From positions 20,315 through 84,314 of the forward strand of contig JBAZWC010000002.1 of the NCBI GenBank assembly GCA_041660565.1: 64,000 nt of DNA. The letters are read 5' to 3'. The DNA comes from Patescibacteria group bacterium (lineage in GTDB: Bacteria; Patescibacteriota; UBA1384; CAJBMM01). The notes beneath the pieces are model-generated. The model was not told the origin of the DNA, did not search any database, and saw only the letters and a program-made list of their open reading frames with translations. This document shows positions 3,305 to 56,890 of the stretch, piece after piece (positions within the stretch are counted from its first letter, which is position 1; each line of letters opens with the position of its first letter). A program made the translations under genes and the position numbers.

Positions 3305-4021
3305 ATGTCCGGACACTCTAAATGGGCCACCACCAAACATCAGAAAGCCGTTACCGACGCCAGACGTGGAGCGGCGTTTACCAAAATTGCCAATATGATC
3401 ACCGTAGCCGCACGTGAAGGTGGCGATGTGGAATTTAATTTCAAACTGCGCCTGGCGGTGGAAAAAGCCAAAGCGGCCAGTATGCCCAAAGACAACATTG
3501 AACGAGCAATTGTGCGCGGATCGGGCAAAGGTGATGGAGCCAATAAATTAGAAGAGCTGACCTACGAGGCCTACGGCCCAGGCGGATCTGCCATGATTAT
3601 CACCGCTTTGACTGATAATAAACTTAGAACATATACCGACATTCGGGCGATAATGAACAAGGCGAACGGCCGCATTGCCGAAGCTGGTTCGGTGATGTAC
3701 TTGTTTAAGCATAGTGGCGAGATTATCGTTTCGCACGCACCGGAAAAATCAGACGAAGTACAGCTAATTGCCATAGACCAAGGCGCAGACGATGTTGAAA
3801 GCGATGAAGGGCTAACCCGCGTCATCACCGCCGTACCGGATCTGCAAAAAATCCGTCAGGGTCTACTTGATGCGGGATTGACGGTGGATGACGCCAAGTT
3901 GCAATGGATCGCCAAAACTCCGCATATTTTATCAGATGAAGATTTAGCAAAATTAGATAGATTAATTGAACTATTAGATGAACTAGACGATGTCACCGAA
4001 GTAGCAACAAACGTTGGATAG
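3305..4021 (+). CDS. yebC: YebC/PmpR family DNA-binding transcriptional regulator
   Basis: N-terminus MSGHSKWATTKHQKA is the family signature. RBS AAGGAAGGAG lies 6 nt before the ATG at 3305; the longer GTG-3284 version in the ORF track is unlikely. Confidence 0.85.
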   Translation: MSGHSKWATTKHQKAVTDARRGAAFTKIANMITVAAREGGDVEFNFKLRLAVEKAKAASMPKDNIERAIVRGSGKGDGANKLEELTYEAYGPGGSAMIITALTDNKLRTYTDIRAIMNKANGRIAEAGSVMYLFKHSGEIIVSHAPEKSDEVQLIAIDQGADDVESDEGLTRVITAVPDLQKIRQGLLDAGLTVDDAKLQWIAKTPHILSDEDLAKLDRLIELLDELDDVTEVATNVG

Positions 4022-4128
4022 TAAGGGCGTTTAGGGGGCTTGGGGGAGTTAGGGTCATTGGGAGAGCCAAATGGTTCCCCAAAACCCCTAACCACCCTAA
4101 AATCCCTAACGCCTTTCGAATTTTTGAC

Positions 4129-4168
4129 AAAAGAAAACGCCCCGTGCCATACAGGCCACGGGAGCGTT
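4129..4168 (-). terminator. rho-independent terminator (GC hairpin CCCGTGGCC..GGCACGGGG + TTTTCTTT on minus strand), copy 1 of a duplicated 39-nt unit
   Basis: A near-identical 39-nt sequence recurs at 4494-4532. It lies directly downstream of minus-strand gene 4181..4408. Confidence 0.55.
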
Positions 4169-4180
4169 AGTGCGGGCGGG

Positions 4181-4408
4181 CTACTGCTCTGCCAGATACG
4201 CGGTGTATTCCCGCGCGTCCAGATCATAGGTCAGGATGCACCTGTCTCGGTTACCCGGAGTCAGGCTGCAATGTCGGGTAGTAGCGCCGATGGCGCTTGC
4301 GGGCGGTTCCACGCCGATGGGGGCGGGGACAACTGGTCGTCCTTGGAACGCACTCTTGACGCCCGTACCATCTGGGTGCCAAAGAATGTAGGCGGGTATT
4401 GCTTGCAT
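4181..4408 (-). CDS. small hypothetical protein, paralog C of a tandem triplet (GC-rich islet)
   Basis: RBS GGGAGAAGG precedes the ATG. It shares the motif block PGNRDRCILTYDLDAREYTAY with EDCVLVKMGTVYFAYP and EDCILVPGPSGKTYFAFP in the two upstream genes. Confidence 0.5.
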   Translation of the reverse strand: MQAIPAYILWHPDGTGVKSAFQGRPVVPAPIGVEPPASAIGATTRHCSLTPGNRDRCILTYDLDAREYTAYLAEQ

Positions 4409-4493
4409 AACCTTCTCCCGTGATATGAATCATCAGTGCAAGTTGGCCTTACGCCTTTAGTGTCTGTTTTTATATTCGCTTTGTCAAATATGT

Positions 4494-4532
4494 AAAGAAA
4501 ACGCCCCGTGCCATACTGGCCACGGGGACGTT
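4494..4532 (-). terminator. rho-independent terminator, copy 2 of the duplicated 39-nt unit
   Basis: Same hairpin and T-tract, downstream of minus-strand gene 4547..4879. Confidence 0.55.
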
Positions 4533-4546
4533 GATAAAAGCGAAGC

Positions 4547-4879
4547 CTAACCTTTTGCCGGGTAGGCGAAGTAGACAGTTCCCATCTTTACCAGCACGCA
4601 GTCTTCCTCCTGCCCGACTGTGGGGTATTGTGTTCTGGTTTTGGCAGATAATCCCGTCGGGGGTTTGTCTCCAAGGCGGGACGGGAAAACCGCCGCCCGC
4701 AGGTAAAAGGCCTTGACAGGATCTGTACCGGGGTTGTGACGGAGATGGCGACGCGGGTTATCGCCCCACGTTACCGTAAAACGAACGACCAGTTGTTGAT
4801 CTTGCACCACCACGTCAGTCTCCTTTGTGGTTGGTGAAACGCCCCCGGCCGGGTGGCCGAAGGGCGTCGTCAAAGGCAT
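4547..4879 (-). CDS. small hypothetical protein, paralog B of the tandem triplet
   Basis: Its start abuts the stop of 4881..5282 (translational coupling). Conserved blocks TVTWGDNPRRH, AVFPSRLGDKPP and EDCVLVKMGTVYFAYP align with paralogs A and C. Confidence 0.5.
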   Translation of the reverse strand: MPLTTPFGHPAGGVSPTTKETDVVVQDQQLVVRFTVTWGDNPRRHLRHNPGTDPVKAFYLRAAVFPSRLGDKPPTGLSAKTRTQYPTVGQEEDCVLVKMGTVYFAYPAKG

Positions 4880-4880
4880 G

Positions 4881-5282
4881 CTACTTGGTTGGGTTCAACA
4901 CGATGGTGATTCGTCCGTCGGGGGACTTGGTGACCCCACCGAGCCGATATCCATCAGCGAGAGTCAGCACATTACCGTCGATATCGTATGTTGTGCATAC
5001 TATAACCTCGACGACATCACCCTGATCCATGACTGGGAAAGCGAAGTACGTCTTCCCGGATGGACCAGGGACAAGAATGCAATCCTCCGAATCCCCAACA
5101 ACAGGATACCTCTTTCGCGCCACCGCCCCGGAATCCTCTGGGGGGATATATCCGAGGTCCGACGGGAAAACGATCACGTTGCCGTGAGCTGCAACGCAGT
5201 TGCTGGAGCCAGGTTTCCTGTTCCAGCGCTCATTCTTCTGCCACGTGATAACGACACGAACACGGTCAGGTACTTCCGGCAT
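4881..5282 (-). CDS. small hypothetical protein, paralog A (longest, with a ~40 aa C-terminal extension)
   Basis: RBS AAAGGA lies 7 nt upstream of the ATG. It is GC-rich. The opposite-strand ORF 4827..5357 is judged an antisense artefact. Confidence 0.5.
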   Translation of the reverse strand: MPEVPDRVRVVITWQKNERWNRKPGSSNCVAAHGNVIVFPSDLGYIPPEDSGAVARKRYPVVGDSEDCILVPGPSGKTYFAFPVMDQGDVVEVIVCTTYDIDGNVLTLADGYRLGGVTKSPDGRITIVLNPTK

Positions 5283-5481
5283 TGCAATGTCCTTTCATTA
5301 ACTAAAATGAGAGGCTGCCACAGTATCAGTATTAGCATATTGTCACATATAGAATAGAATGTCAATATGTTATTCGTTCGGTTTAGAGGTTATACTACAA
5401 TGTGAAGTCGGATTAGGTTCGCCACAAAGCGGGCGGACATGCTAGTCCGCCCCTACACCACAGGGAAGAACAAGGAGGAAA

Positions 5482-13279: not shown

Positions 13280-13323
13280 AGAAATAGCCGCCCACCATCT
13301 TTCGGGGGCGACTATTTGGCACA

Positions 13324-13533
13324 TCAGCGGCAGGTAAGCCACCGAAGAAGAGCTCGTGGCCCTTTGGCCGGGCTAGGAGGCGGGCCACAGCAAGGCCGAA
13401 GCAGGGAAACAGCGTACTGAAGTGCCTTGTCTTCAGTCATCTCGTGTTCCTTGGCGTATTCGGCCAGAATTCGGTGCGACCTTGCTGTCAGGCTGAGTCG
13501 GCTTTTTTCTGGCACCGACGCGGGCTTCGTCAT
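13324..13533 (-). CDS. ribbon-helix-helix (CopG/antitoxin-like) small protein, possibly decayed (low-complexity C-terminus), in a ~300-bp GC-rich islet
   Basis: N-terminal KSRLSLTARSHRILAEYAKEHEMTEDKALQYAV fits an RHH beta-strand plus two helices. The tail PCCGPPPSPAKGPRALL looks like read-through. GC-rich. Confidence 0.35.
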   Translation of the reverse strand: MTKPASVPEKSRLSLTARSHRILAEYAKEHEMTEDKALQYAVSLLRPCCGPPPSPAKGPRALLRWLTCR

Positions 13534-13597
13534 GACCGCATCTTTTCCCGCCTGATCGATTCGAGCAATGCGGCCAGCACTGATTTCCGCGAGCGCT

Positions 13598-13680
13598 TTG
13601 TCATTCCGGATTTAATCCGGAATCTATATAAAAAAAATTTCCATCATTTCAAATTTCAAATTTCAAATTGTAAATTATCT
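13598..13680. repeat. CCGGAATGACA-family hairpin (TGTCATTCCGGATTTAATCCGGAAT) followed by a (TTTCAAA)n heptamer tract
   Basis: Short palindromic element related to the family A TIR. The tttcaaatttcaaatttcaaattg tract recurs at about 6040, 20250, 50075 and 54265. Confidence 0.5.
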
Positions 13681-13782
13681 ACATTTAGTCAAAACCGTGC
13701 TTAAAAGAGAACCGTCCCCTATTTCTGCCTTTCCATCCTCCATTCTCTATCCTCTATCCTCCAAATGTGCTATAATAATAAT

Positions 13783-15150
13783 ATGAAATTAAAACTGGTA
13801 TATGCCCCAAGCCCAATCTTAAATCGCAAAGCCATCAGTGTGCCAAAAATCACGCCAGATTTGGTGAAGCTAGCCAACAATATGCTGGAAACAATGGTAG
13901 ATGGCAATGGCATCGGCCTAGCCGCTCCCCAAGTTAATCAGAATGTTCGTTTGATCGTTGTGGGAAATTCACCCGAAAAAGAGGGTGAAGATTACATCCC
14001 AACCACCATTTTATTCAATCCTAAAATCACCAAATTCTCGTCGGAAAAAGAGTTCGCCACCGAAGGCTGCTTGTCTATTCCGGGAATTACCGGCGTGGTT
14101 GAACGATCAAAGTCGATTACGGTTGAATTTCTTGATGTTGATGGAAATAAGCAAACGCTAAACGCAAGCGACTTGTATGCGCGCGTAATTCAACACGAGG
14201 TTGACCACTTGGAAGGCGTACTGTTCACTGATCGTCTAAGACACTATTCGATCGTCTTTTACGGCACCTCCGATTTTGCCGTACCGGCGCTAGAAGAGTT
14301 GCTTCTGCACCCACAGTTTGAACTTAAAGCGATTGTAACCGAAACCGATAAACCGGCTGGCCGCGGACATCAGCTAACCGCGTCACCGGTGAAAAAATTC
14401 GCCCTTGATAATAAAATCAAAGTGCTGCAGCCAATGTCGCTTAATTGCCAACACAAAAACGCCACCAAAGCCCAGTCAGCCACAAATGCTTTTCAAGACT
14501 TAAGCAAAATTAAGCCTGATTTTCAGATTGTGGCCAGTTATGGAAAAATCATCCCGCAAGAATTTTTGGATTTAGCAAAACTGATCAACCTAAATATTCA
14601 CCCATCACTATTGCCAAAATATCGTGGCGCCAGCCCAATTCAATCTGCCATTTTGCACGGTGAAACTCAAACCGGCGTGGCAGTGATGGCAATGGCGGCG
14701 GAAATGGACGCCGGCCCGGTAGTAACAATGTATCGCCACAATATCGACCCGGACGAAAATGCAGATCAGTTATCAAAACGGTTGGCTGAGTCTGGCGCAG
14801 CGCAACTGATTATGACCTTAGAGGAAATGTTAAGCAATAAATCGTCACTGTATGAGCAAGACCACACCAAAGCCACTTTCACCAAAAAGTTTGAAAGCGT
14901 GGACGGATTAATTGATTGGACCAAATCTCCAATAGATTTGCATAACTTTGTCCGCGCGCTAACCTCTAAACCGGGCGCGTTCACCCAGATTGATGGCCAA
15001 AACGTCAAAATACTGAAAACCCATTTGACAGAGGGTAAATTGACCATTGATTTGGTGCAATTACCCGGTAAAAAACCATTTTCAATGTCGGATTTGAAAA
15101 ATGGATATCCAAAAATGTATCAAGAATTATTAAATCAATCCAATAAGTAA
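13783..15150 (+). CDS. def-fmt: fused peptide deformylase (N-terminal ~160 aa) - methionyl-tRNA formyltransferase (C-terminal ~295 aa)
   Basis: One uninterrupted ORF. Def motifs GIGLAAPQV, EGCLS and QHEVDHLEG are followed without a stop by Fmt motifs IVFYGTSDFAVPALEEL and HPSLLPKYRGASPIQ. TATAAT lies 7 nt before the ATG at 13783 (leaderless?). Confidence 0.75.
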   Translation: MKLKLVYAPSPILNRKAISVPKITPDLVKLANNMLETMVDGNGIGLAAPQVNQNVRLIVVGNSPEKEGEDYIPTTILFNPKITKFSSEKEFATEGCLSIPGITGVVERSKSITVEFLDVDGNKQTLNASDLYARVIQHEVDHLEGVLFTDRLRHYSIVFYGTSDFAVPALEELLLHPQFELKAIVTETDKPAGRGHQLTASPVKKFALDNKIKVLQPMSLNCQHKNATKAQSATNAFQDLSKIKPDFQIVASYGKIIPQEFLDLAKLINLNIHPSLLPKYRGASPIQSAILHGETQTGVAVMAMAAEMDAGPVVTMYRHNIDPDENADQLSKRLAESGAAQLIMTLEEMLSNKSSLYEQDHTKATFTKKFESVDGLIDWTKSPIDLHNFVRALTSKPGAFTQIDGQNVKILKTHLTEGKLTIDLVQLPGKKPFSMSDLKNGYPKMYQELLNQSNK

Positions 15151-16809: not shown

Positions 16810-16925
16810 TGTCATTTCGACTCGGGGAGTGCGTCGGCACGACCTCGGTGGAGAAATCTAAATAAAAATCCTTTCCAGTTCTTGACGGGATCTCTCGCCC
16901 CGCTTCGCGGTGGTGTCGAGATGAC
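16810..16925. mobile_element. MITE-like element, family A copy 4
   Basis: TGTCATTTCGACTCGG...GTCGAGATGACA with inner GGTGGAGAAATCT. Confidence 0.65.
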
Positions 16926-16965
16926 ATATTAAAAAAAAATCAGGGTAGCAAGTCTTACAGACCTA

Positions 16966-17661
16966 CTACCCGGGTTTGACCAGTAACTCCCGCCATGGAG
17001 ACTGCGTTAGATCCAGCGGTCCCAGATCCTCGTGGACCATTTCCCAGTGCACTCTGGTTAGCCCCTCCGCAATCGGGTTACCCTCTAGCACGGCGATCAT
17101 CATGGCAACGCATGCGGTCATTTTGGTTTCCATCGCACCGAGCCAGTTGCCAACGTCCACCAGCCAGAAGTACCGATACAGGTTACCATAATCGGTATCT
17201 GGGCTGCTGTAGGCATAATCGGCATAGTGAGACGGCTGTTGCCCATTAATGTCAAGCGCGAAACACAGCGCCATATTGTACATCGAATGAGCAGCGACAT
17301 GAACGATCGACGCGTTGAAGTCGTAATCCACAAACCGCTTTGGCAACAGCGATGCCACGGTTAACCGATTTGGGTAGCCTAACCCTCGTCGCACTTCATG
17401 ACAAGTACCCTGATGGTCCAAATAGACGTCGACGAATTGAGCGATAGCGCTGATTCGTCGTTGCACTTCTGGCCAATCATGAACCCGCTGCACGTGACGC
17501 GATATTTCCAGTTCTCCAGTGAGCACCGGATTCGACAGTAACGGGATGCGCGGACGGAACTTGGCTGCTACTTCGGGGTAGTATTGCAATATCCCCGCTC
17601 TTTCCGCGCCCAGCTGTAAAGCTTGTGCGCCTTTTGAGCGCACTGATGTCCATGCGCTCAT
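16966..17661 (-). CDS. hypothetical protein (231 aa) in a GC-rich islet; no family recognised
   Basis: RBS AAAGGAGAAAC upstream of the ATG. GC-rich composition contrasts with its neighbours. Confidence 0.5.
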   Translation of the reverse strand: MSAWTSVRSKGAQALQLGAERAGILQYYPEVAAKFRPRIPLLSNPVLTGELEISRHVQRVHDWPEVQRRISAIAQFVDVYLDHQGTCHEVRRGLGYPNRLTVASLLPKRFVDYDFNASIVHVAAHSMYNMALCFALDINGQQPSHYADYAYSSPDTDYGNLYRYFWLVDVGNWLGAMETKMTACVAMMIAVLEGNPIAEGLTRVHWEMVHEDLGPLDLTQSPWRELLVKPG

Positions 17662-17742
17662 TTCTGAGTTTCTCCTTTAGAGAAAGCAGAGGCTCCCGGA
17701 ACGTTATACAACGCGGGAGCCTTGAGTGTGCAGGAGCGGCGA

Positions 17743-17952
17743 TCAGCGGGGAATACGGCGCGGGCCATGGGGCATGTTCGGCCTCTTGCCGGCGGTGAAG
17801 CCGGCGGCGGAATCCGTCGTGACCGGCACCCCGCTGTGGGTGCCTCCGAGCCCCCACGGCTTCCGTTCCGCGATCTCGGCGTCGCGAAGCGCGACGTACT
17901 CGTCTCGGGATATCTGACCGTTGTCCAGCTTCTCACGAAGATTGCTAGCCAT
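17743..17952 (-). CDS. small SHOCT-like domain protein (69 aa; start at the internal ATG with RBS GGAAGGAG)
   Basis: MASNLREKLDNGQISRDEYVALRDAEIAERK resembles the short C-terminal SHOCT motif. It is followed by a GGCTCCCG...CGGGAGCC hairpin. The longer 110-aa ORF version is disfavoured. Confidence 0.4.
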   Translation of the reverse strand: MASNLREKLDNGQISRDEYVALRDAEIAERKPWGLGGTHSGVPVTTDSAAGFTAGKRPNMPHGPRRIPR

Positions 17953-18126
17953 CTCGATCCGACTCCTTCCAGAGAATGTGTGCCGCGATTGCCGGATGCG
18001 GCACAAATGATGGGTTCGCCCGGAGCCTGTCTGACGAAGCTCCAGCGTATGCATATATTGTATCAAAAATTTCAATACTTGTCAATAGCTGAAAAAGATG
18101 TTATGGTAGAAGTCACAATATAGTTC

Positions 18127-38444: not shown

Positions 38445-38531
38445 AAGAAACGTGGCCGGAAACGCATATTGTAAAAATGTTAGTTTTGTGATATAAAAAT
38501 AGTATCCGCCCGATATTCCAAGGAGGCAACG

Positions 38532-38732
38532 ATGACTGACACCATACTAAGCCTGGGTCAAGTTGTGCAAGTTGACGTCCGTGGGAAAGGAAGACGCGGG
38601 CACATTCAGACGCTACAGCCAGACAAATGCATCGTCTGGCTCGACAAGGACCCGGACATTGGAGACGAACCCGTCAAGCAGCGCGCCGTCGAGCTACCGT
38701 TGACCAGCGAGGCAATCCGTCCCTATGCCTAG
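38532..38732 (+). CDS. small hypothetical protein (66 aa) in a ~250-bp GC-rich islet
   Basis: RBS CAAGGAGGCAACG before the ATG. It is followed by the terminator GACCCGTCGCGACGATTGCGGCGGGTC + TTTTTT at 38747-38790. Confidence 0.45.
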   Translation: MTDTILSLGQVVQVDVRGKGRRGHIQTLQPDKCIVWLDKDPDIGDEPVKQRAVELPLTSEAIRPYA

Positions 38733-38746
38733 GAGCACTCAACCAT

Positions 38747-38790
38747 GACCCGTCGCGACGATTGCGGCGGGTCTGATTCTTTTTTACATA
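38747..38790 (+). terminator. rho-independent terminator
   Basis: GC-rich hairpin followed by TGATTCTTTTTT. Confidence 0.6.
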
Positions 38791-38827
38791 GATTCCGGAT
38801 CTAGTCCGGAATGACAGCTAGTAATAT

Positions 38828-41706: not shown

Positions 41707-43460
41707 AAAAACTACTCTTTGTATTCATTTTTGCACTCTGCCTTGTTCCAACCAAAACTTTAGCCGCAGACACCGGCTGGACTATTACCAGTTTTAACTC
41801 AGACGCAAATATCCAAACAGACGGAACCGTATTGTTTAAAGAAACTATTGCGGTAGATTTTGAAAGCGCCAAACACGGCATCTATCGTGAAATTCCTTAT
41901 ATTTATCGAAACAGTGATAAAACGACATATACCAAAGTAGATATACAGTCTGTACTAATTGATCAGCAAGGCGAGCAGTTTACCTCTAGCAAGAACGGTG
42001 ATTATGTTGAATTAAAAATTGGCAACCCTAATCAAACAATCACTGGCAAGCATACTTACGACCTAACATATGTTGTTACCGGTATTTTACTTGGCTATGC
42101 AGACTACGACGAGCTTTATTGGAACGTCACCGGAAATCAATGGGCTGTCCCAATAGAGCATGCCACCGCCAGCGTTACATTACCATTAGACGGCATGGTT
42201 CAATCTAGCTGCTACGTAGGGGCAGCCGGATCAACCGAAAGCTGCACCAAAAACGAGACTTCGTCCGGAAAAGTTACATTTAGTTCAACAAAGGTATTGA
42301 ACCCGGAAGAACAACTGACATACGCGGTGGCTTTTATTAAAGAGATGGTGCCGCTGTTGACGGTTTCGTCGGACAACCAAACTCATTCCGATAGTTTTTA
42401 TGCTGCAATGATTGGCACATTTTTACTGGTATTAATAATTGGTCCGGCAATGCTAGTTCGAAAGTGGTGGAAAAACGGGCGAGACCGAAAACTAATTAAA
42501 ACCGCCAACAGTCAAATTGAGTCTAGCGTGGGCTTGTTTGAACACGAAACCATTGCCCCCGAGTTTGCCCCGCCTCTAAACTTACGTCCGGCCGAAATGA
42601 ATGCGGTGTTAACCGAGAGAACAAAGCCAGCTGGCATTGCCGCCACTATCGTAGATCTTGCCGCTCGCGGGTATCTGACCATTACCGATCAGCCGAAAAC
42701 AAACATTTTTAGCCGAGTAAATTTTGTAATGACTAAAACTGACAAGGTACCAAGCGATCTCTCTGAGTACGAAAAATATTTATATGACCAGCTTTTCCTT
42801 GGCCGAAATGAAATATCGACCAACGAGCTAAGCCGAAAATTTGTCACGCAAACACTGGAGATTAATAAACTAATCATGAACAAGGTTACTACAGATCAAT
42901 ACTTTACCGGCAACCCAGATGTTGTCCGCCGTCGCTATCTAATATGGGGGATAGTTTTGGCGTGCCTATCACCATTTTTAGTCTATTTTACCATCTTTAT
43001 TGGACCGGAGTTTGTGAACGCGGTAGCTTATGGACTAGCTGCGGGGCTAACCATTTTCGGTGCTTTTATGGCGATATTTGCTTACGCCATGCCGGCAAAA
43101 ACCGCACTTGGACACGAAACGGCCAATAAAATTTTAGGATACAAAATGTTTATTGGTTCAACCGAAAAATATCGGGCCAAATTTATGGAAAATAATAATA
43201 TCTTTATCGATGTCCTGCCGTATGCAATCGTGTTTGGGTTGACAGATAAGTTGGCTAAGGCCTGTGCCGAGATGGGAATTGAGCCGAACAACCCAACTTG
43301 GTATCGTTCATCTACCGCGTTTAATATGATGGCATTTTCGACCTCAATGAACAGTTTTTCCACTTCAATGAATGCAGCCGCCGCCCCATCTGGTTCCGGT
43401 AGTGGCGGTGGAGGATTTAGTGGGGGAGGATTTGGCGGTGGCGGTGGAGGAAGTTGGTAA
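41703..43460 (+). CDS. DUF2207-family membrane protein (signal peptide, extracellular domain, TM segments, Gly-rich C-terminal tail)
   Basis: C-terminal GSGSGGGGFSGGGFGGGGGGSW tail characteristic of the family. Overlaps the upstream permease by 4 nt. Confidence 0.55.
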   Translation: MKKLLFVFIFALCLVPTKTLAADTGWTITSFNSDANIQTDGTVLFKETIAVDFESAKHGIYREIPYIYRNSDKTTYTKVDIQSVLIDQQGEQFTSSKNGDYVELKIGNPNQTITGKHTYDLTYVVTGILLGYADYDELYWNVTGNQWAVPIEHATASVTLPLDGMVQSSCYVGAAGSTESCTKNETSSGKVTFSSTKVLNPEEQLTYAVAFIKEMVPLLTVSSDNQTHSDSFYAAMIGTFLLVLIIGPAMLVRKWWKNGRDRKLIKTANSQIESSVGLFEHETIAPEFAPPLNLRPAEMNAVLTERTKPAGIAATIVDLAARGYLTITDQPKTNIFSRVNFVMTKTDKVPSDLSEYEKYLYDQLFLGRNEISTNELSRKFVTQTLEINKLIMNKVTTDQYFTGNPDVVRRRYLIWGIVLACLSPFLVYFTIFIGPEFVNAVAYGLAAGLTIFGAFMAIFAYAMPAKTALGHETANKILGYKMFIGSTEKYRAKFMENNNIFIDVLPYAIVFGLTDKLAKACAEMGIEPNNPTWYRSSTAFNMMAFSTSMNSFSTSMNAAAAPSGSGSGGGGFSGGGFGGGGGGSW

Positions 43461-43603
43461 ATCAGAAAATAGATGATCGATTTTTCGCGTTCGAACGGAG
43501 AGAGAACTAATCAGAACAACGCCGGAAAGTTCTCGTTTCACTCGAACAAGAATGTATAACCTGTCATTCCGGAAAAAATCTCTGAATCTATATAAAAAAA
43601 GAA

Positions 43604-43643
43604 GAAGCGCGGGTGGCCGGTTTGGCCCTCGCGCTCTTTTGAG
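43604..43643. terminator. bidirectional rho-independent terminator (GCGCGGGTGGCC-ggtttg-GGCCCTCGCGC with T-tracts on both strands)
   Basis: Seen in sequence. It separates the DUF2207 gene (+) from the paralog array (-). Confidence 0.55.
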
Positions 43644-43647
43644 TTGA

Positions 43648-43907
43648 TCACGCCCCATGACGATGACGCCGATAGTCGATGAGGCAAGGAATGAACCACA
43701 CAAGCGCCAACCAGCGACCCCTGTATGTCTTAGCCGCAAACATGTGGATCATGACGGATAGACAATAGGCCGCGCCCAGCATCACGATTCCGATCGAGAT
43801 CCAACCGCGAGACCAGAGCGCCCCCATATGATGCCATCCCCCGATTACCCACAGTATGATCGCGGCCATCACCGGCGCGATCCACGACTTCCAGCATGCG
43901 AGCATCC
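43648..43907 (-). CDS. small 2-TM membrane protein, paralog 3 of a tandem triplet (GC-rich islet)
   Basis: ATG at 43907 preceded by GGGAGG. Shares G(A/S)AYC...M...W(P/F) blocks with the two upstream genes. Confidence 0.5.
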
Positions 43908-44162
43908 TCAGGCCTCCCGTGAACAACGTCGCTTGCGGCGATCATTGAGCCACAGCTTGGGCCAAACAAAAGCCGTGAAAACCCGTTTGGGATCAACGGT
44001 GCCGATAAACGCCATCGTTATCGAGCAATATGCCGAGCCGGCGACATACAACACCAGTAGCAACCATCGGCCGTCGTTCCATCGCGAGGATACAAGATCC
44101 CAGCCTGCAACCAGGAAGAACACGAACCAGAGCAGAGACACCACCTTCATTCGCCAAGTCAT
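43908..44162 (-). CDS. small 2-TM membrane protein, paralog 2
   Basis: RBS GGGAGGG. YVAGSAYCSITMAFIG...FVWPKLWLNDRR aligns with paralogs 1 and 3. Its stop abuts the start of paralog 3. Confidence 0.5.
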   Translation of the reverse strand: MTWRMKVVSLLWFVFFLVAGWDLVSSRWNDGRWLLLVLYVAGSAYCSITMAFIGTVDPKRVFTAFVWPKLWLNDRRKRRCSREA

Positions 44163-44201
44163 TGCGTTTCCCTCCCGGGAGTCAAAACGGTAGTGGCCGT
44201 G

Positions 44202-44456
44202 TTAGGCCGATCGGTAATGATTGCGTATTTGCAGGTAGACGGTGTATGGCCACAAAAACGCCTCGATCCTGCCCTTGTCGTCGTCAGCACCAAGCATACA
44301 TATCACCGTCATTGGAACGTATATGCACGCCAACGCGCCCACCACTTGCCAGAACGCCTGACAATCAAGGATGCCGTTGCACCATCCGTTATCCGCAACC
44401 AACAGTGCAACAAGAACGAGAGCTGGAGCAGCCAAAGGCCAACTACGCACAAGCAT
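44202..44456 (-). CDS. small 2-TM membrane protein, paralog 1
   Basis: RBS AAGGAGGG. ALACIYVPMTVICMLG...FLWPYTVYLQIR aligns with the other two. Confidence 0.5.
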   Translation of the reverse strand: MLVRSWPLAAPALVLVALLVADNGWCNGILDCQAFWQVVGALACIYVPMTVICMLGADDDKGRIEAFLWPYTVYLQIRNHYRSA

Positions 44457-44609
44457 TGTACACCCTCCTTGCCGCAGAGTAGGGAAGTGCTGACCATAAT
44501 ATACCCTAAATTGAGGTAAATGTCACGGCATTCCCTCGTTATCCTTCAAAATCCTTAGTAATCCCTTAGTCCGACGAGACGGTCGAGTGGGGGATTGTCA
44601 AAAAACTTT

Positions 44610-45491
44610 TTACAAAACTATTTTTTCTTGTTCAACGGTAATTTTTTGTAATGAATAAAAATTCATTTTTTTAAGAAGATAAATTATTAGTGAATTCAAA
44701 ACTAATACCAGCTGAAGAGCGATCTTGCCCACGAAAACCGCTAGTGAGAACATAATGTAAGCCACAGTCAGTGGGAGATAGCGCCCTACCCCACTAATAA
44801 TTTCTTTTTCTTTACTACCAATAATTGTAGTTATAATATCTGGACGCTCGTTTATTGTCTCGTTGCCGGTTAGGTTCAAGTCCCCTATCCCCAGCTTGTC
44901 TAGTAGCTCTTGTCTAACATCTGCCGGCAATTCAGCGTCAATTGGTTGGTTTGCAAGAACATTAATGGTTTGGTTGACCGTTAAATTAGGATTAAAACTG
45001 GGCACCACCATTTGGATTATCTTAACTTCATATTTATATGGGATGTTGATACCATTTTTCAAGTTCTGTACCTGTGGTGCAGAGTAAGAGACTACCGCAA
45101 TCACCACCGCCAGGCCCCAAAACAACAGCGATAAACTCTTATTCGCAATTTGATCTACCTGTGGCTTAATATAGAACTGCTTAGTCCTAATTGAGGTTGA
45201 TATTCCCACGTACATTAAGATTGCTAAAAGCACCGTACCTAATAAAATGTATAAATTAAACGGCACGAATAGCAATAAAATTGCAGATGACAAAATAACG
45301 GCAAAGATATTAAACACCCAATCATCCAGCAAAACCGTCACAATACCAAAACATAGAGGCATAACCAAAAAAGTAAGAATCAAACTATAATAATGACCGT
45401 TTAAGGCCGCGTGTAATCCGTAAAATGAAATAAATGAAGACAACGCCAGCAAAAACACAAGCGCTGTTTTTTTGACTATTGAATTGCCCAT
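44610..45491 (-). CDS. hypothetical polytopic membrane protein
   Basis: 293 aa, several hydrophobic helices. No family recognised. Confidence 0.45.
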   Translation of the reverse strand: MGNSIVKKTALVFLLALSSFISFYGLHAALNGHYYSLILTFLVMPLCFGIVTVLLDDWVFNIFAVILSSAILLLFVPFNLYILLGTVLLAILMYVGISTSIRTKQFYIKPQVDQIANKSLSLLFWGLAVVIAVVSYSAPQVQNLKNGINIPYKYEVKIIQMVVPSFNPNLTVNQTINVLANQPIDAELPADVRQELLDKLGIGDLNLTGNETINERPDIITTIIGSKEKEIISGVGRYLPLTVAYIMFSLAVFVGKIALQLVLVLNSLIIYLLKKMNFYSLQKITVEQEKIVL

Positions 45492-56811: not shown

Positions 56812-56845
56812 TGTCATTCCGAACTAGATCCGGAATCTATACGCA
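56812..56845. repeat. CCGGAATGACA-family hairpin (TGTCATTCCGAACTAGATCCGGAATCTATA)
   Basis: Seen in sequence. Confidence 0.5.
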
Positions 56846-56851
56846 TAAGAA

Positions 56852-56880
56852 TAGGGGCGGGACATCGCTGTCCCGCCCCT
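56852..56880 (-). terminator. terminator hairpin AGGGGCGGGACAGCGATGTCCCGCCCCT (family C-like GC clamp) + T-rich tail on the minus strand
   Basis: 10 nt downstream of the stop of 56891..57370. Confidence 0.5.
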
Positions 56881-56890
56881 TGCGGTAAAC

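Follow-up and report, generated by a model that had tools for sequence, protein, structure and literature searches.

What are the three very small genes that stand one behind another in a guanine- and cytosine-rich (GC-rich) islet of a Patescibacteria genome, do they code for proteins at all, and what might those proteins do? The question was raised by an earlier note on a 64-kb stretch of a Patescibacteria metagenome-assembled genome, part of a contig of 374,447 bp; we call this whole stretch the window, and all positions below are counted along it. The islet takes up about 0.9 kb (43600-44530), and its three-gene set, here called A, B and C, lies on the minus strand within 43648-44456 (Table 1). 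We show that the three open reading frames (ORFs) are real coding sequences and that they are paralogs of one another. Taken together, the evidence makes it very probable that they form a genuine operon of paralogous membrane-protein genes of foreign origin.

Coding capacity and paralogy of the three genes

Since no orthologs of these genes were available, the paralogs were tested against one another, in place of the usual test of conservation among relatives. The units were scored pairwise by local alignment with BLOSUM62 in all six reading frames, and the scores were set against those of 2000 residue shuffles. In the proposed frame the similarity between B and C reached a z of 7.6, with none of the 2000 shuffles attaining the observed score; for A and C the z was 5.5 (1 of 2000 shuffles) and for A and B it was 3.9 (9 of 2000), while the remaining five frames gave values from -1.4 to 2.6 between units. 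Compared as DNA, the units are not similar (z between -0.4 and 1.0), and protein similarity that is specific to one frame and leaves no trace in the DNA indicates that the three are old duplicates held under constraint at the protein level. Pairwise BLASTP returned expect values (E) of 2e-6 for B and C, 6e-4 for A and C, and 1e-3 for A and B, the protein identity among the three copies being 25-30%. When all 1093 six-frame ORFs of the window were searched, B and C proved to be reciprocal best non-self matches (E 0.003). The base composition by codon position points the same way for A, B and C, GC being lowest at the second position (GC2) and higher at the third (GC3) than at the second in each of the proposed frames.

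The paralogy claimed in the earlier note is hence clear for B and C and weaker for A, which is colinear with the other two in the alignment and of equal length and layout, with matches to them of E 0.44 and 1.4 in the window ORF set. The shared sequence blocks that had been listed, G[AS]AYC among them, are present in B and C and mostly do not extend to A. Otherwise the description given there of three consecutive minus-strand genes of 84 to 85 amino acids (aa) is accurate, the ORFs measuring 84, 84 and 85 aa. The same is true of the strong ribosome-binding site ascribed to each gene: between 43600 and 44560 the Shine-Dalgarno motif GGAGG has three minus-strand copies and none on the other strand, and each of the three, the only ones in the islet, is found 7-8 nucleotides (nt) 5' of one of the three ATGs, against a background in the window of 0.34-0.48 GGAGG per kb per strand. 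The second and third genes are indeed packed stop to start, only 2 nt separating the B stop codon (TGA, 43908-43910) from the C start codon (ATG, 43905); the gap between A and B amounts to 39 nt.

A and B share one reading frame, and what stands between them is a TAA followed by 36 nt (HGHYRFDSREGNA; window 44163-44204). In a hypothetical A-B fusion or read-through product the number of helices would stay even, and the common frame may be the trace of an ancestral fused repeat protein, or of read-through of the stop codon.

GC-rich DNA readily yields long ORFs on both strands, and several overlap here. The 150-aa ORF at 44030-44482 of the opposite strand, which the earlier note had named as the possible conserved frame, was rejected: its GC3 of 0.45 is the lowest of its three codon positions, it has no GGAGG and no Pfam match, and it shows no similarity between units, such similarity being confined to the proposed minus-strand frame. 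Two further ORFs of that strand (43828-44193 and 44193-44519) were discarded on the same four counts, namely the missing GGAGG, a wrong GC3 pattern, no inter-unit similarity and no Pfam match. The JGI and Logan gene callers both call all three genes. In the NCBI record, gene B is the only one to be found between the DUF2207 gene (MFA6082325.1) and the gene for a 293-aa membrane protein, the locus tags running from WC773_02870 directly to WC773_02875, so that A and C are absent from that annotation.

Table 1. Positions of the genes, signals, cassettes and repeats discussed in the text, in window coordinates.
Feature	Position	Strand	Remarks
Gene A	44202-44456	-	84-aa ORF; most divergent paralog
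Gene B	43908-44162	-	84-aa ORF; in NCBI an 80-aa hypothetical protein, WC773_02870 / MFA6082326.1
Gene C	43648-43905	-	85 aa counted from the ATG; the mechanical ORF begins at TTG 43926
Shine-Dalgarno GGAGG of A (AAGGAGGG)	44464-44468	-	7 nt before the ATG
Shine-Dalgarno GGAGG of B (GGGAGGG)	44171-44175	-	8 nt before the ATG
Shine-Dalgarno GGAGG of C (GGGAGG)	43913-43917	-	within the 3' end of B, 7 nt before the C ATG
Putative promoter, GTGACA-17 nt-TATATT	44498-44526	-	upstream of A; 10 of 12 consensus positions
Intrinsic terminator	43594-43634	-	G+C-rich stem 43607-43634, then T-tract UUCUUCUUUUUUU (43594-43606); directly after C
Palindromic intergenic repeat (TGTCATTCCGGA...GAATCTATA)	43562-43592	+	abuts the terminator; host-type
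293-aa multi-helix membrane protein	44610-45491	-	last gene of the znuA-znuC-znuB operon
Cassette	3991-5320		holds its own tandem paralog pair
Paralog pair in that cassette	4547-4879, 4881-5282	-	110 and 133 aa; WC773_02680, WC773_02685
Cassette	~13280-13598		69-aa ORF
Cassette	16871-18070		231-aa ORF
Cassette	38491-38760		66-aa ORF with AAGGAGG and terminator
Cassette	~56850-57750		174-aa and 100-aa ORFs
Repeat copies	13599-13628, 30219-30230, 35525-35536 (inverted partner near 35600), 36894-36905, 38805-38816, 43562-43592, 56812-56841		
TGTCATTTC variants, inverted pairs	8759/8882, 9495/9619, 25301/25426, 31633/31762, 50022/50166		

Composition, setting and relatives of the islet

The GC-rich composition that had drawn attention to the islet, said to be unlike that of its neighbours, is well marked: the ORFs of A, B and C have a GC of 0.53-0.58, compared with 0.37-0.44 in the flanking genes and 0.437 in the window as a whole. 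Their GC3 values (A 0.59, B 0.65, C 0.71) are 4-8 standard deviations above those of the host genes in the window, which average 0.427±0.037 and do not exceed 0.498. Because this signal sits at third codon positions, a preference for amino acids with GC-rich codons is no explanation for it, and the synonymous codon choice of the three genes is the opposite of host usage. From composition and codon choice we infer that the islet was acquired horizontally.

The two host operons that enclose it converge on it, ABC-2/DUF2207 being encoded by the plus strand and znuA-znuC-znuB-293aa by the minus strand, in a neighbourhood comprising the genes for DUF2207, an ABC-2 transporter, ZnuABC, Fur, CysS and the 293-aa membrane protein. 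The last of these matches no family in Pfam or PADLOC and has no homologue among 5.8 billion protein clusters, and its gene is unusually AT-rich (GC 0.37). The C-terminus of the DUF2207 protein is a long Gly-rich tail (GSGSGGGGFSGGGFGGGGGGSW; window 43380-43460), which raises the local GC just before the islet and so slightly blurs the left edge of the islet in GC profiles.

At the downstream end of the islet, gene C is directly followed by a hairpin whose free energy is -22.5 kcal/mol when read from the minus strand (z only -1.8) and -26.7 kcal/mol when read from the plus strand (z only -2.2). This hairpin, at 43607-43634, was not flagged by a consensus terminator scan. The earlier note took it for a bidirectional terminator, a claim that stands for the minus strand, where the stem is followed by a T-tract, and is poorly sustained for the plus strand, where an A-tract precedes the hairpin and the tail is merely CUCUUUUGAG. 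With so short a U tail, action in both directions is plausible but would be weak on the plus strand; the hairpin may also terminate DUF2207 transcripts arriving on that strand. Non-coding RNA was considered as an alternative reading of the islet, but no Rfam family was matched anywhere in the window, nor, at threshold, within 43300-44750, where the best match, at 20 bits, fell far short of its gathering score of 58.7.

Searches for relatives of A, B and C returned, with one exception, only the three proteins themselves or noise. This holds for a word-indexed profile search of the 5.8 billion protein clusters. When 1.84 billion representatives were searched by full HMMER, the profile had a single non-self match, P0005, a 673-aa tandem-repeat translation aligned in 11 weak stretches, which we rejected as a chance match inflated by its repeats. 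Both collections include the proteins of the rest of the same genome assembly, where no homologue was seen either. A profile search yielded no further relative in the window itself or in fetched loci totalling 1.9 Mb, each translated in six frames. Against Pfam-A the best scores were 11.9-14.1 bits where the cut-offs are 24-27, and against NCBIfam 9-18 bits where they are 147-870, the matches in both cases being between hydrophobic segments. In PHROGs, B and C had no match and A matched only two families, both of unknown function (E 0.38 and 1.3). In PADLOC-DB nothing matched A-C, or the 293-aa protein next to them, at E ≤ 10; no match to A-C was present among PDB sequences; tblastn against 50,697 phage records and against plasmid records returned nothing, as did a scan of IMG/VR viruses; and our literature search found nothing specific to such proteins.

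The setting is as solitary as the genes. The closest relatives of the DUF2207 protein are 41-44% identical to it, and the genome as a whole is without close relatives in the databases searched. None of the DUF2207 relatives examined has the DUF2207/znu junction, and no genes like A-C lie near them in 80 genome loci and 2 contigs. Since the genome is itself so isolated, as the equally homologue-free 293-aa gene illustrates, the absence of homologues of A-C carries less weight than it otherwise would.

Architecture and possible function of the proteins

Hydropathy bears out the earlier reading of the proteins as two-helix membrane proteins. Each of the three has two hydrophobic 19-residue windows with a mean Kyte-Doolittle value of 1.7-2.2, located at about residues 3-25 and 35-56 (in A, at 2-20 and 38-56). 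The layout consists of a short N-terminus, a first helix, a loop of some ten residues rich in Trp and Gly, a second helix and an aromatic amphipathic stretch (e.g. VFTAFVWPKLWL). B and C end in a strongly basic tail, RRKRR in B and a His-rich one in C, and carry net charges of +8 and +7. In A, whose net charge is -1, the loop is acidic and contains two Cys, helix 2 is succeeded by DDD, and the basic tail is missing. Tryptophan makes up 19 of the 253 residues of the set (7.5%), with 7 in B and 8 in C, compared with 0.85% in a host-protein set of 14,723 residues, and the three-way alignment has four columns in which Trp is invariant. The same alignment contains no conserved polar or charged residue inside the helices. 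By the positive-inside rule, this architecture implies hairpins of predicted N-in/C-in topology.

The explanation that we favour, and to which as a whole we would give an even chance, is that of an acquired operon of paralogous hairpin membrane proteins forming an accessory protective set. The islet would be a self-contained operon made up of a possible promoter, three genes each with its own Shine-Dalgarno sequence, and an intrinsic terminator, and the three genes would descend by old duplications from one gene, each product being a membrane hairpin about 85 aa long. A, B and C would be made together and may assemble as a hetero-oligomer in the cytoplasmic membrane. Such a set could provide immunity to a membrane-acting toxin or serve a function resembling superinfection exclusion, and it would protect by occupying or blocking a membrane target, not by catalysis. 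Hairpin proteins, strong translation signals, intact diverged copies, foreign composition and absence from relatives together make an accessory hetero-oligomeric set the most likely reading. The protective assignment is drawn from the size, architecture, tandem divergence and foreign origin of the genes; taken on its own, a protective or immunity role is a leading guess and a doubtful one, and a considerable share of the probability falls to roles other than those weighed here. The immunity array or holin/antiholin set proposed in the earlier note is plausible, though none of our tests supports it.

Class II microcins and bacteriocins come with small membrane immunity proteins, for example Cvi (colicin V / microcin V) and MchI (microcin H47), and these offer the nearest model for such a role. 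Like A-C, they measure about 50-100 aa, have two predicted helices and occur in islets of foreign composition, with diverged or orphan copies side by side. The likeness is architectural only: no sequence or profile similarity came to light, no precursor, dedicated exporter or modification gene is adjacent here, and the hosts of the known systems are an enterobacterium or a lactic acid bacterium, whereas ours belongs to the Patescibacteria. The earlier note had proposed a search against immunity-protein profiles, and this was negative, neither EntA_Immun nor any other Pfam immunity family matching the three proteins even at E ≤ 10.

A number of observations weigh against the favoured explanation. 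Promoter-like sites are no commoner in the region than expected by chance (3 found; 2.1±1.5 in shuffled sequence), and there is no terminator between the znu-293aa operon and the islet, so that transcription of the islet genes may be mere read-through from that operon. Gene A is only a marginal paralog when searched against the ORFs of the window. AlphaFold2, run on the three-sequence alignment, returned one long helix (residues 9-57) and no hairpin, with a predicted local distance difference test (pLDDT) score of 65 and a predicted template modelling (pTM) score of 0.36; we set this all-helical, low-confidence model aside. There is no ortholog from which purifying selection on the three genes could be gauged. 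As for a protective role, there is no positive evidence for it: no toxin, exporter of foreign composition, phage gene, lysin or defence-system match was found nearby, and no plausible bacteriocin-precursor ORF with a ribosome-binding site is present in 43455-43660 or 44440-44625. The lack of an adjacent toxin gene had already been remarked upon and is confirmed, the flanks being DUF2207, the 293-aa membrane protein and znuBCA; the nearby ABC systems (Znu and ABC-2/DUF2207) have host composition.

Would A, B and C instead be subunits, either of a small hetero-oligomeric transporter or channel of their own or of one of the neighbouring systems, znuACB-293aa or ABC-2/DUF2207? Three hairpins would then form a six-helix bundle, and the tight colinear packing of the genes suggests co-translation. 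The missing terminator between the 293-aa gene and A makes co-transcription with znu possible, and the common frame of A and B, with its TAA and 36 nt, is compatible with a former fused repeat protein. The paired transporters EbrAB and YkkCD, of the small multidrug resistance (SMR) type, are likewise tandem, translationally coupled small membrane paralogs presumed to hetero-oligomerise. However, their subunits have four helices, a length of about 105-120 aa and a conserved membrane-embedded Glu, whereas A-C have two helices, no conserved charged helix residue and no family match. Neither do the helices of A-C conserve any polar residue, and no Pfam or NCBIfam transporter family matches them above noise. 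An association with the neighbouring systems is further opposed by the difference in GC from both operons (0.53-0.58 against 0.37-0.44; GC3 z from +4 to +8) and by the 80 genome loci and 2 contigs in which DUF2207 relatives occur without such genes. We consider a transporter or channel subunit unlikely.

The islet might, on the other hand, be inert foreign DNA, its genes once real and now functionless or, at the extreme, chance ORFs in a GC-rich patch. With neither homologues nor relatives nothing demonstrates current selection; the NCBI pipeline annotated one gene of the three, and DNA of this composition produces long chance ORFs such as those overlapping here on the two strands. Against this stand three intact ORFs of near-identical length, each with a perfectly placed GGAGG; similarity in a single frame, unaccompanied by similarity of the DNA, which speaks for protein-level constraint over a long divergence; and a Trp content so extreme and so conserved in position as to be unlike that of chance ORFs. 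The probability that the islet is inert is, in our estimation, low.

A holin-like or lysis-control set left by a prophage or other mobile element, in which the proteins would oligomerise into membrane holes and the paralogs act as holin and antiholin, is the least probable of these alternatives and decidedly improbable: class II holins, for example those of the phage 21 S protein type, have about 70-100 aa, two transmembrane helices in N-in/C-in arrangement and a basic tail, a purely architectural likeness that B and C share, and foreign composition and strong ribosome-binding sites would suit such an origin, but neither PHROGs nor Pfam gives a holin match, the flanks contain no endolysin, spanin or other phage gene, phage records and IMG/VR gave no hit, A lacks the basic tail, and three diverged copies are not the usual holin layout of one dual-start gene, a dual start being unlikely in B because its second Met (residue 5) is 19 nt from the Shine-Dalgarno sequence. 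Small membrane toxins of the Hok/Gef and GhoT type are short and hydrophobic, usually of less than 60 aa, and each is accompanied by an antitoxin gene or an antisense RNA. A-C are larger (84-85 aa) and three in number, and no Rfam family reaches threshold around them; an antisense RNA of a novel kind may nevertheless be present.

Other GC-rich cassettes and the intergenic repeat

The A-C islet is not the only one of its kind. At least five further GC-rich cassettes lie between housekeeping genes of the window (Table 1), with a GC of 0.52-0.59 and an ORF GC3 of 0.59-0.77, and a Shine-Dalgarno site and a hairpin terminator accompany the majority of their ORFs. Counting the A-C islet, at least six such cassettes make up about 9% of the 64 kb. 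The genes of the other cassettes are all singletons from this genome at the level of 90%-identity clusters; those of their proteins that were tested have no match in Pfam, PADLOC or the phage and viral collections. In the first cassette, the 110-aa and 133-aa products are also paralogs, 42% identical over 79 aa (E 3e-15) and without known relatives; genes duplicated in tandem may be something that such cassettes show repeatedly.

A palindromic repeat abuts the terminator of the A-C islet, and the pattern TGTCATTCCGGA-N5-TCCGGAATC, a motif of 30 nt, likewise abuts the terminators of several of the GC-rich cassettes. It belongs to a family of the form TGTCATTCC-stem-loop-stem-GGAATC that is intergenic and mostly situated just past gene 3' ends, beside terminators. 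The repeats often form inverted pairs about 115-135 nt apart, in the manner of miniature inverted-repeat elements, and their inner stems vary in a compensatory-looking fashion. We considered whether the repeat marks the insertion sites of the cassettes and rejected this idea, as it is widespread both in the window, where variants are found in most of the larger intergenic regions, and in metagenome contigs of ordinary composition: the exact 24-base pattern was matched over 120 times, often beside terminators, in metagenome contigs whose GC spans 26-59%. Being so common within the window and elsewhere, the repeat probably coincides with the islets incidentally, and the copy at 43562-43592 probably belongs to the resident intergenic region, not to the islet. 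Elsewhere in the window, a plus-strand ORF of 461 aa (13765-15150) looks, by eye, like a peptide deformylase (motifs EGCLS and HEVDHL) fused to a methionyl-tRNA formyltransferase.

Islets of lineage-specific small genes are found in members of the Candidate Phyla Radiation (CPR)/Patescibacteria, and the A-C islet resembles them in its foreign composition, its homologue-free small membrane proteins and its site between housekeeping operons; it stands apart from them in that its three genes are recognisably paralogous and their products very rich in Trp. A-C are a new family without known relatives, of a familiar kind, and taken alone they add one more relative-free family of small membrane proteins to a phylum full of them. 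They also provide an example of micro-protein genes that can be validated by their paralogs alone, through frame-specific similarity, placement of ribosome-binding sites and GC3, where a standard pipeline overlooked two of the three.

The population of cassettes is a more intriguing lead than the A-C islet itself, which is of modest interest alone. It suggests that small foreign expression units, drawn from donors that public data have not sampled, are acquired and retained in this lineage. One could go further and see in A, B and C the founding members of a new Trp-rich hairpin family, a hetero-oligomeric membrane device carried on one of many GC-rich cassettes which, each equipped with a promoter, ribosome-binding site and terminator of its own, would have colonised intergenic regions close to terminators in this CPR genome. 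We think this a long shot; if true, small mobile gene cassettes of an undescribed kind, whose donor is unsampled, would be shaping the surface and membrane biology of an ultra-small symbiont. If the cassettes are mobile, or mediate interactions with hosts or phages, they would bear on how the reduced genomes of episymbionts gain functions.

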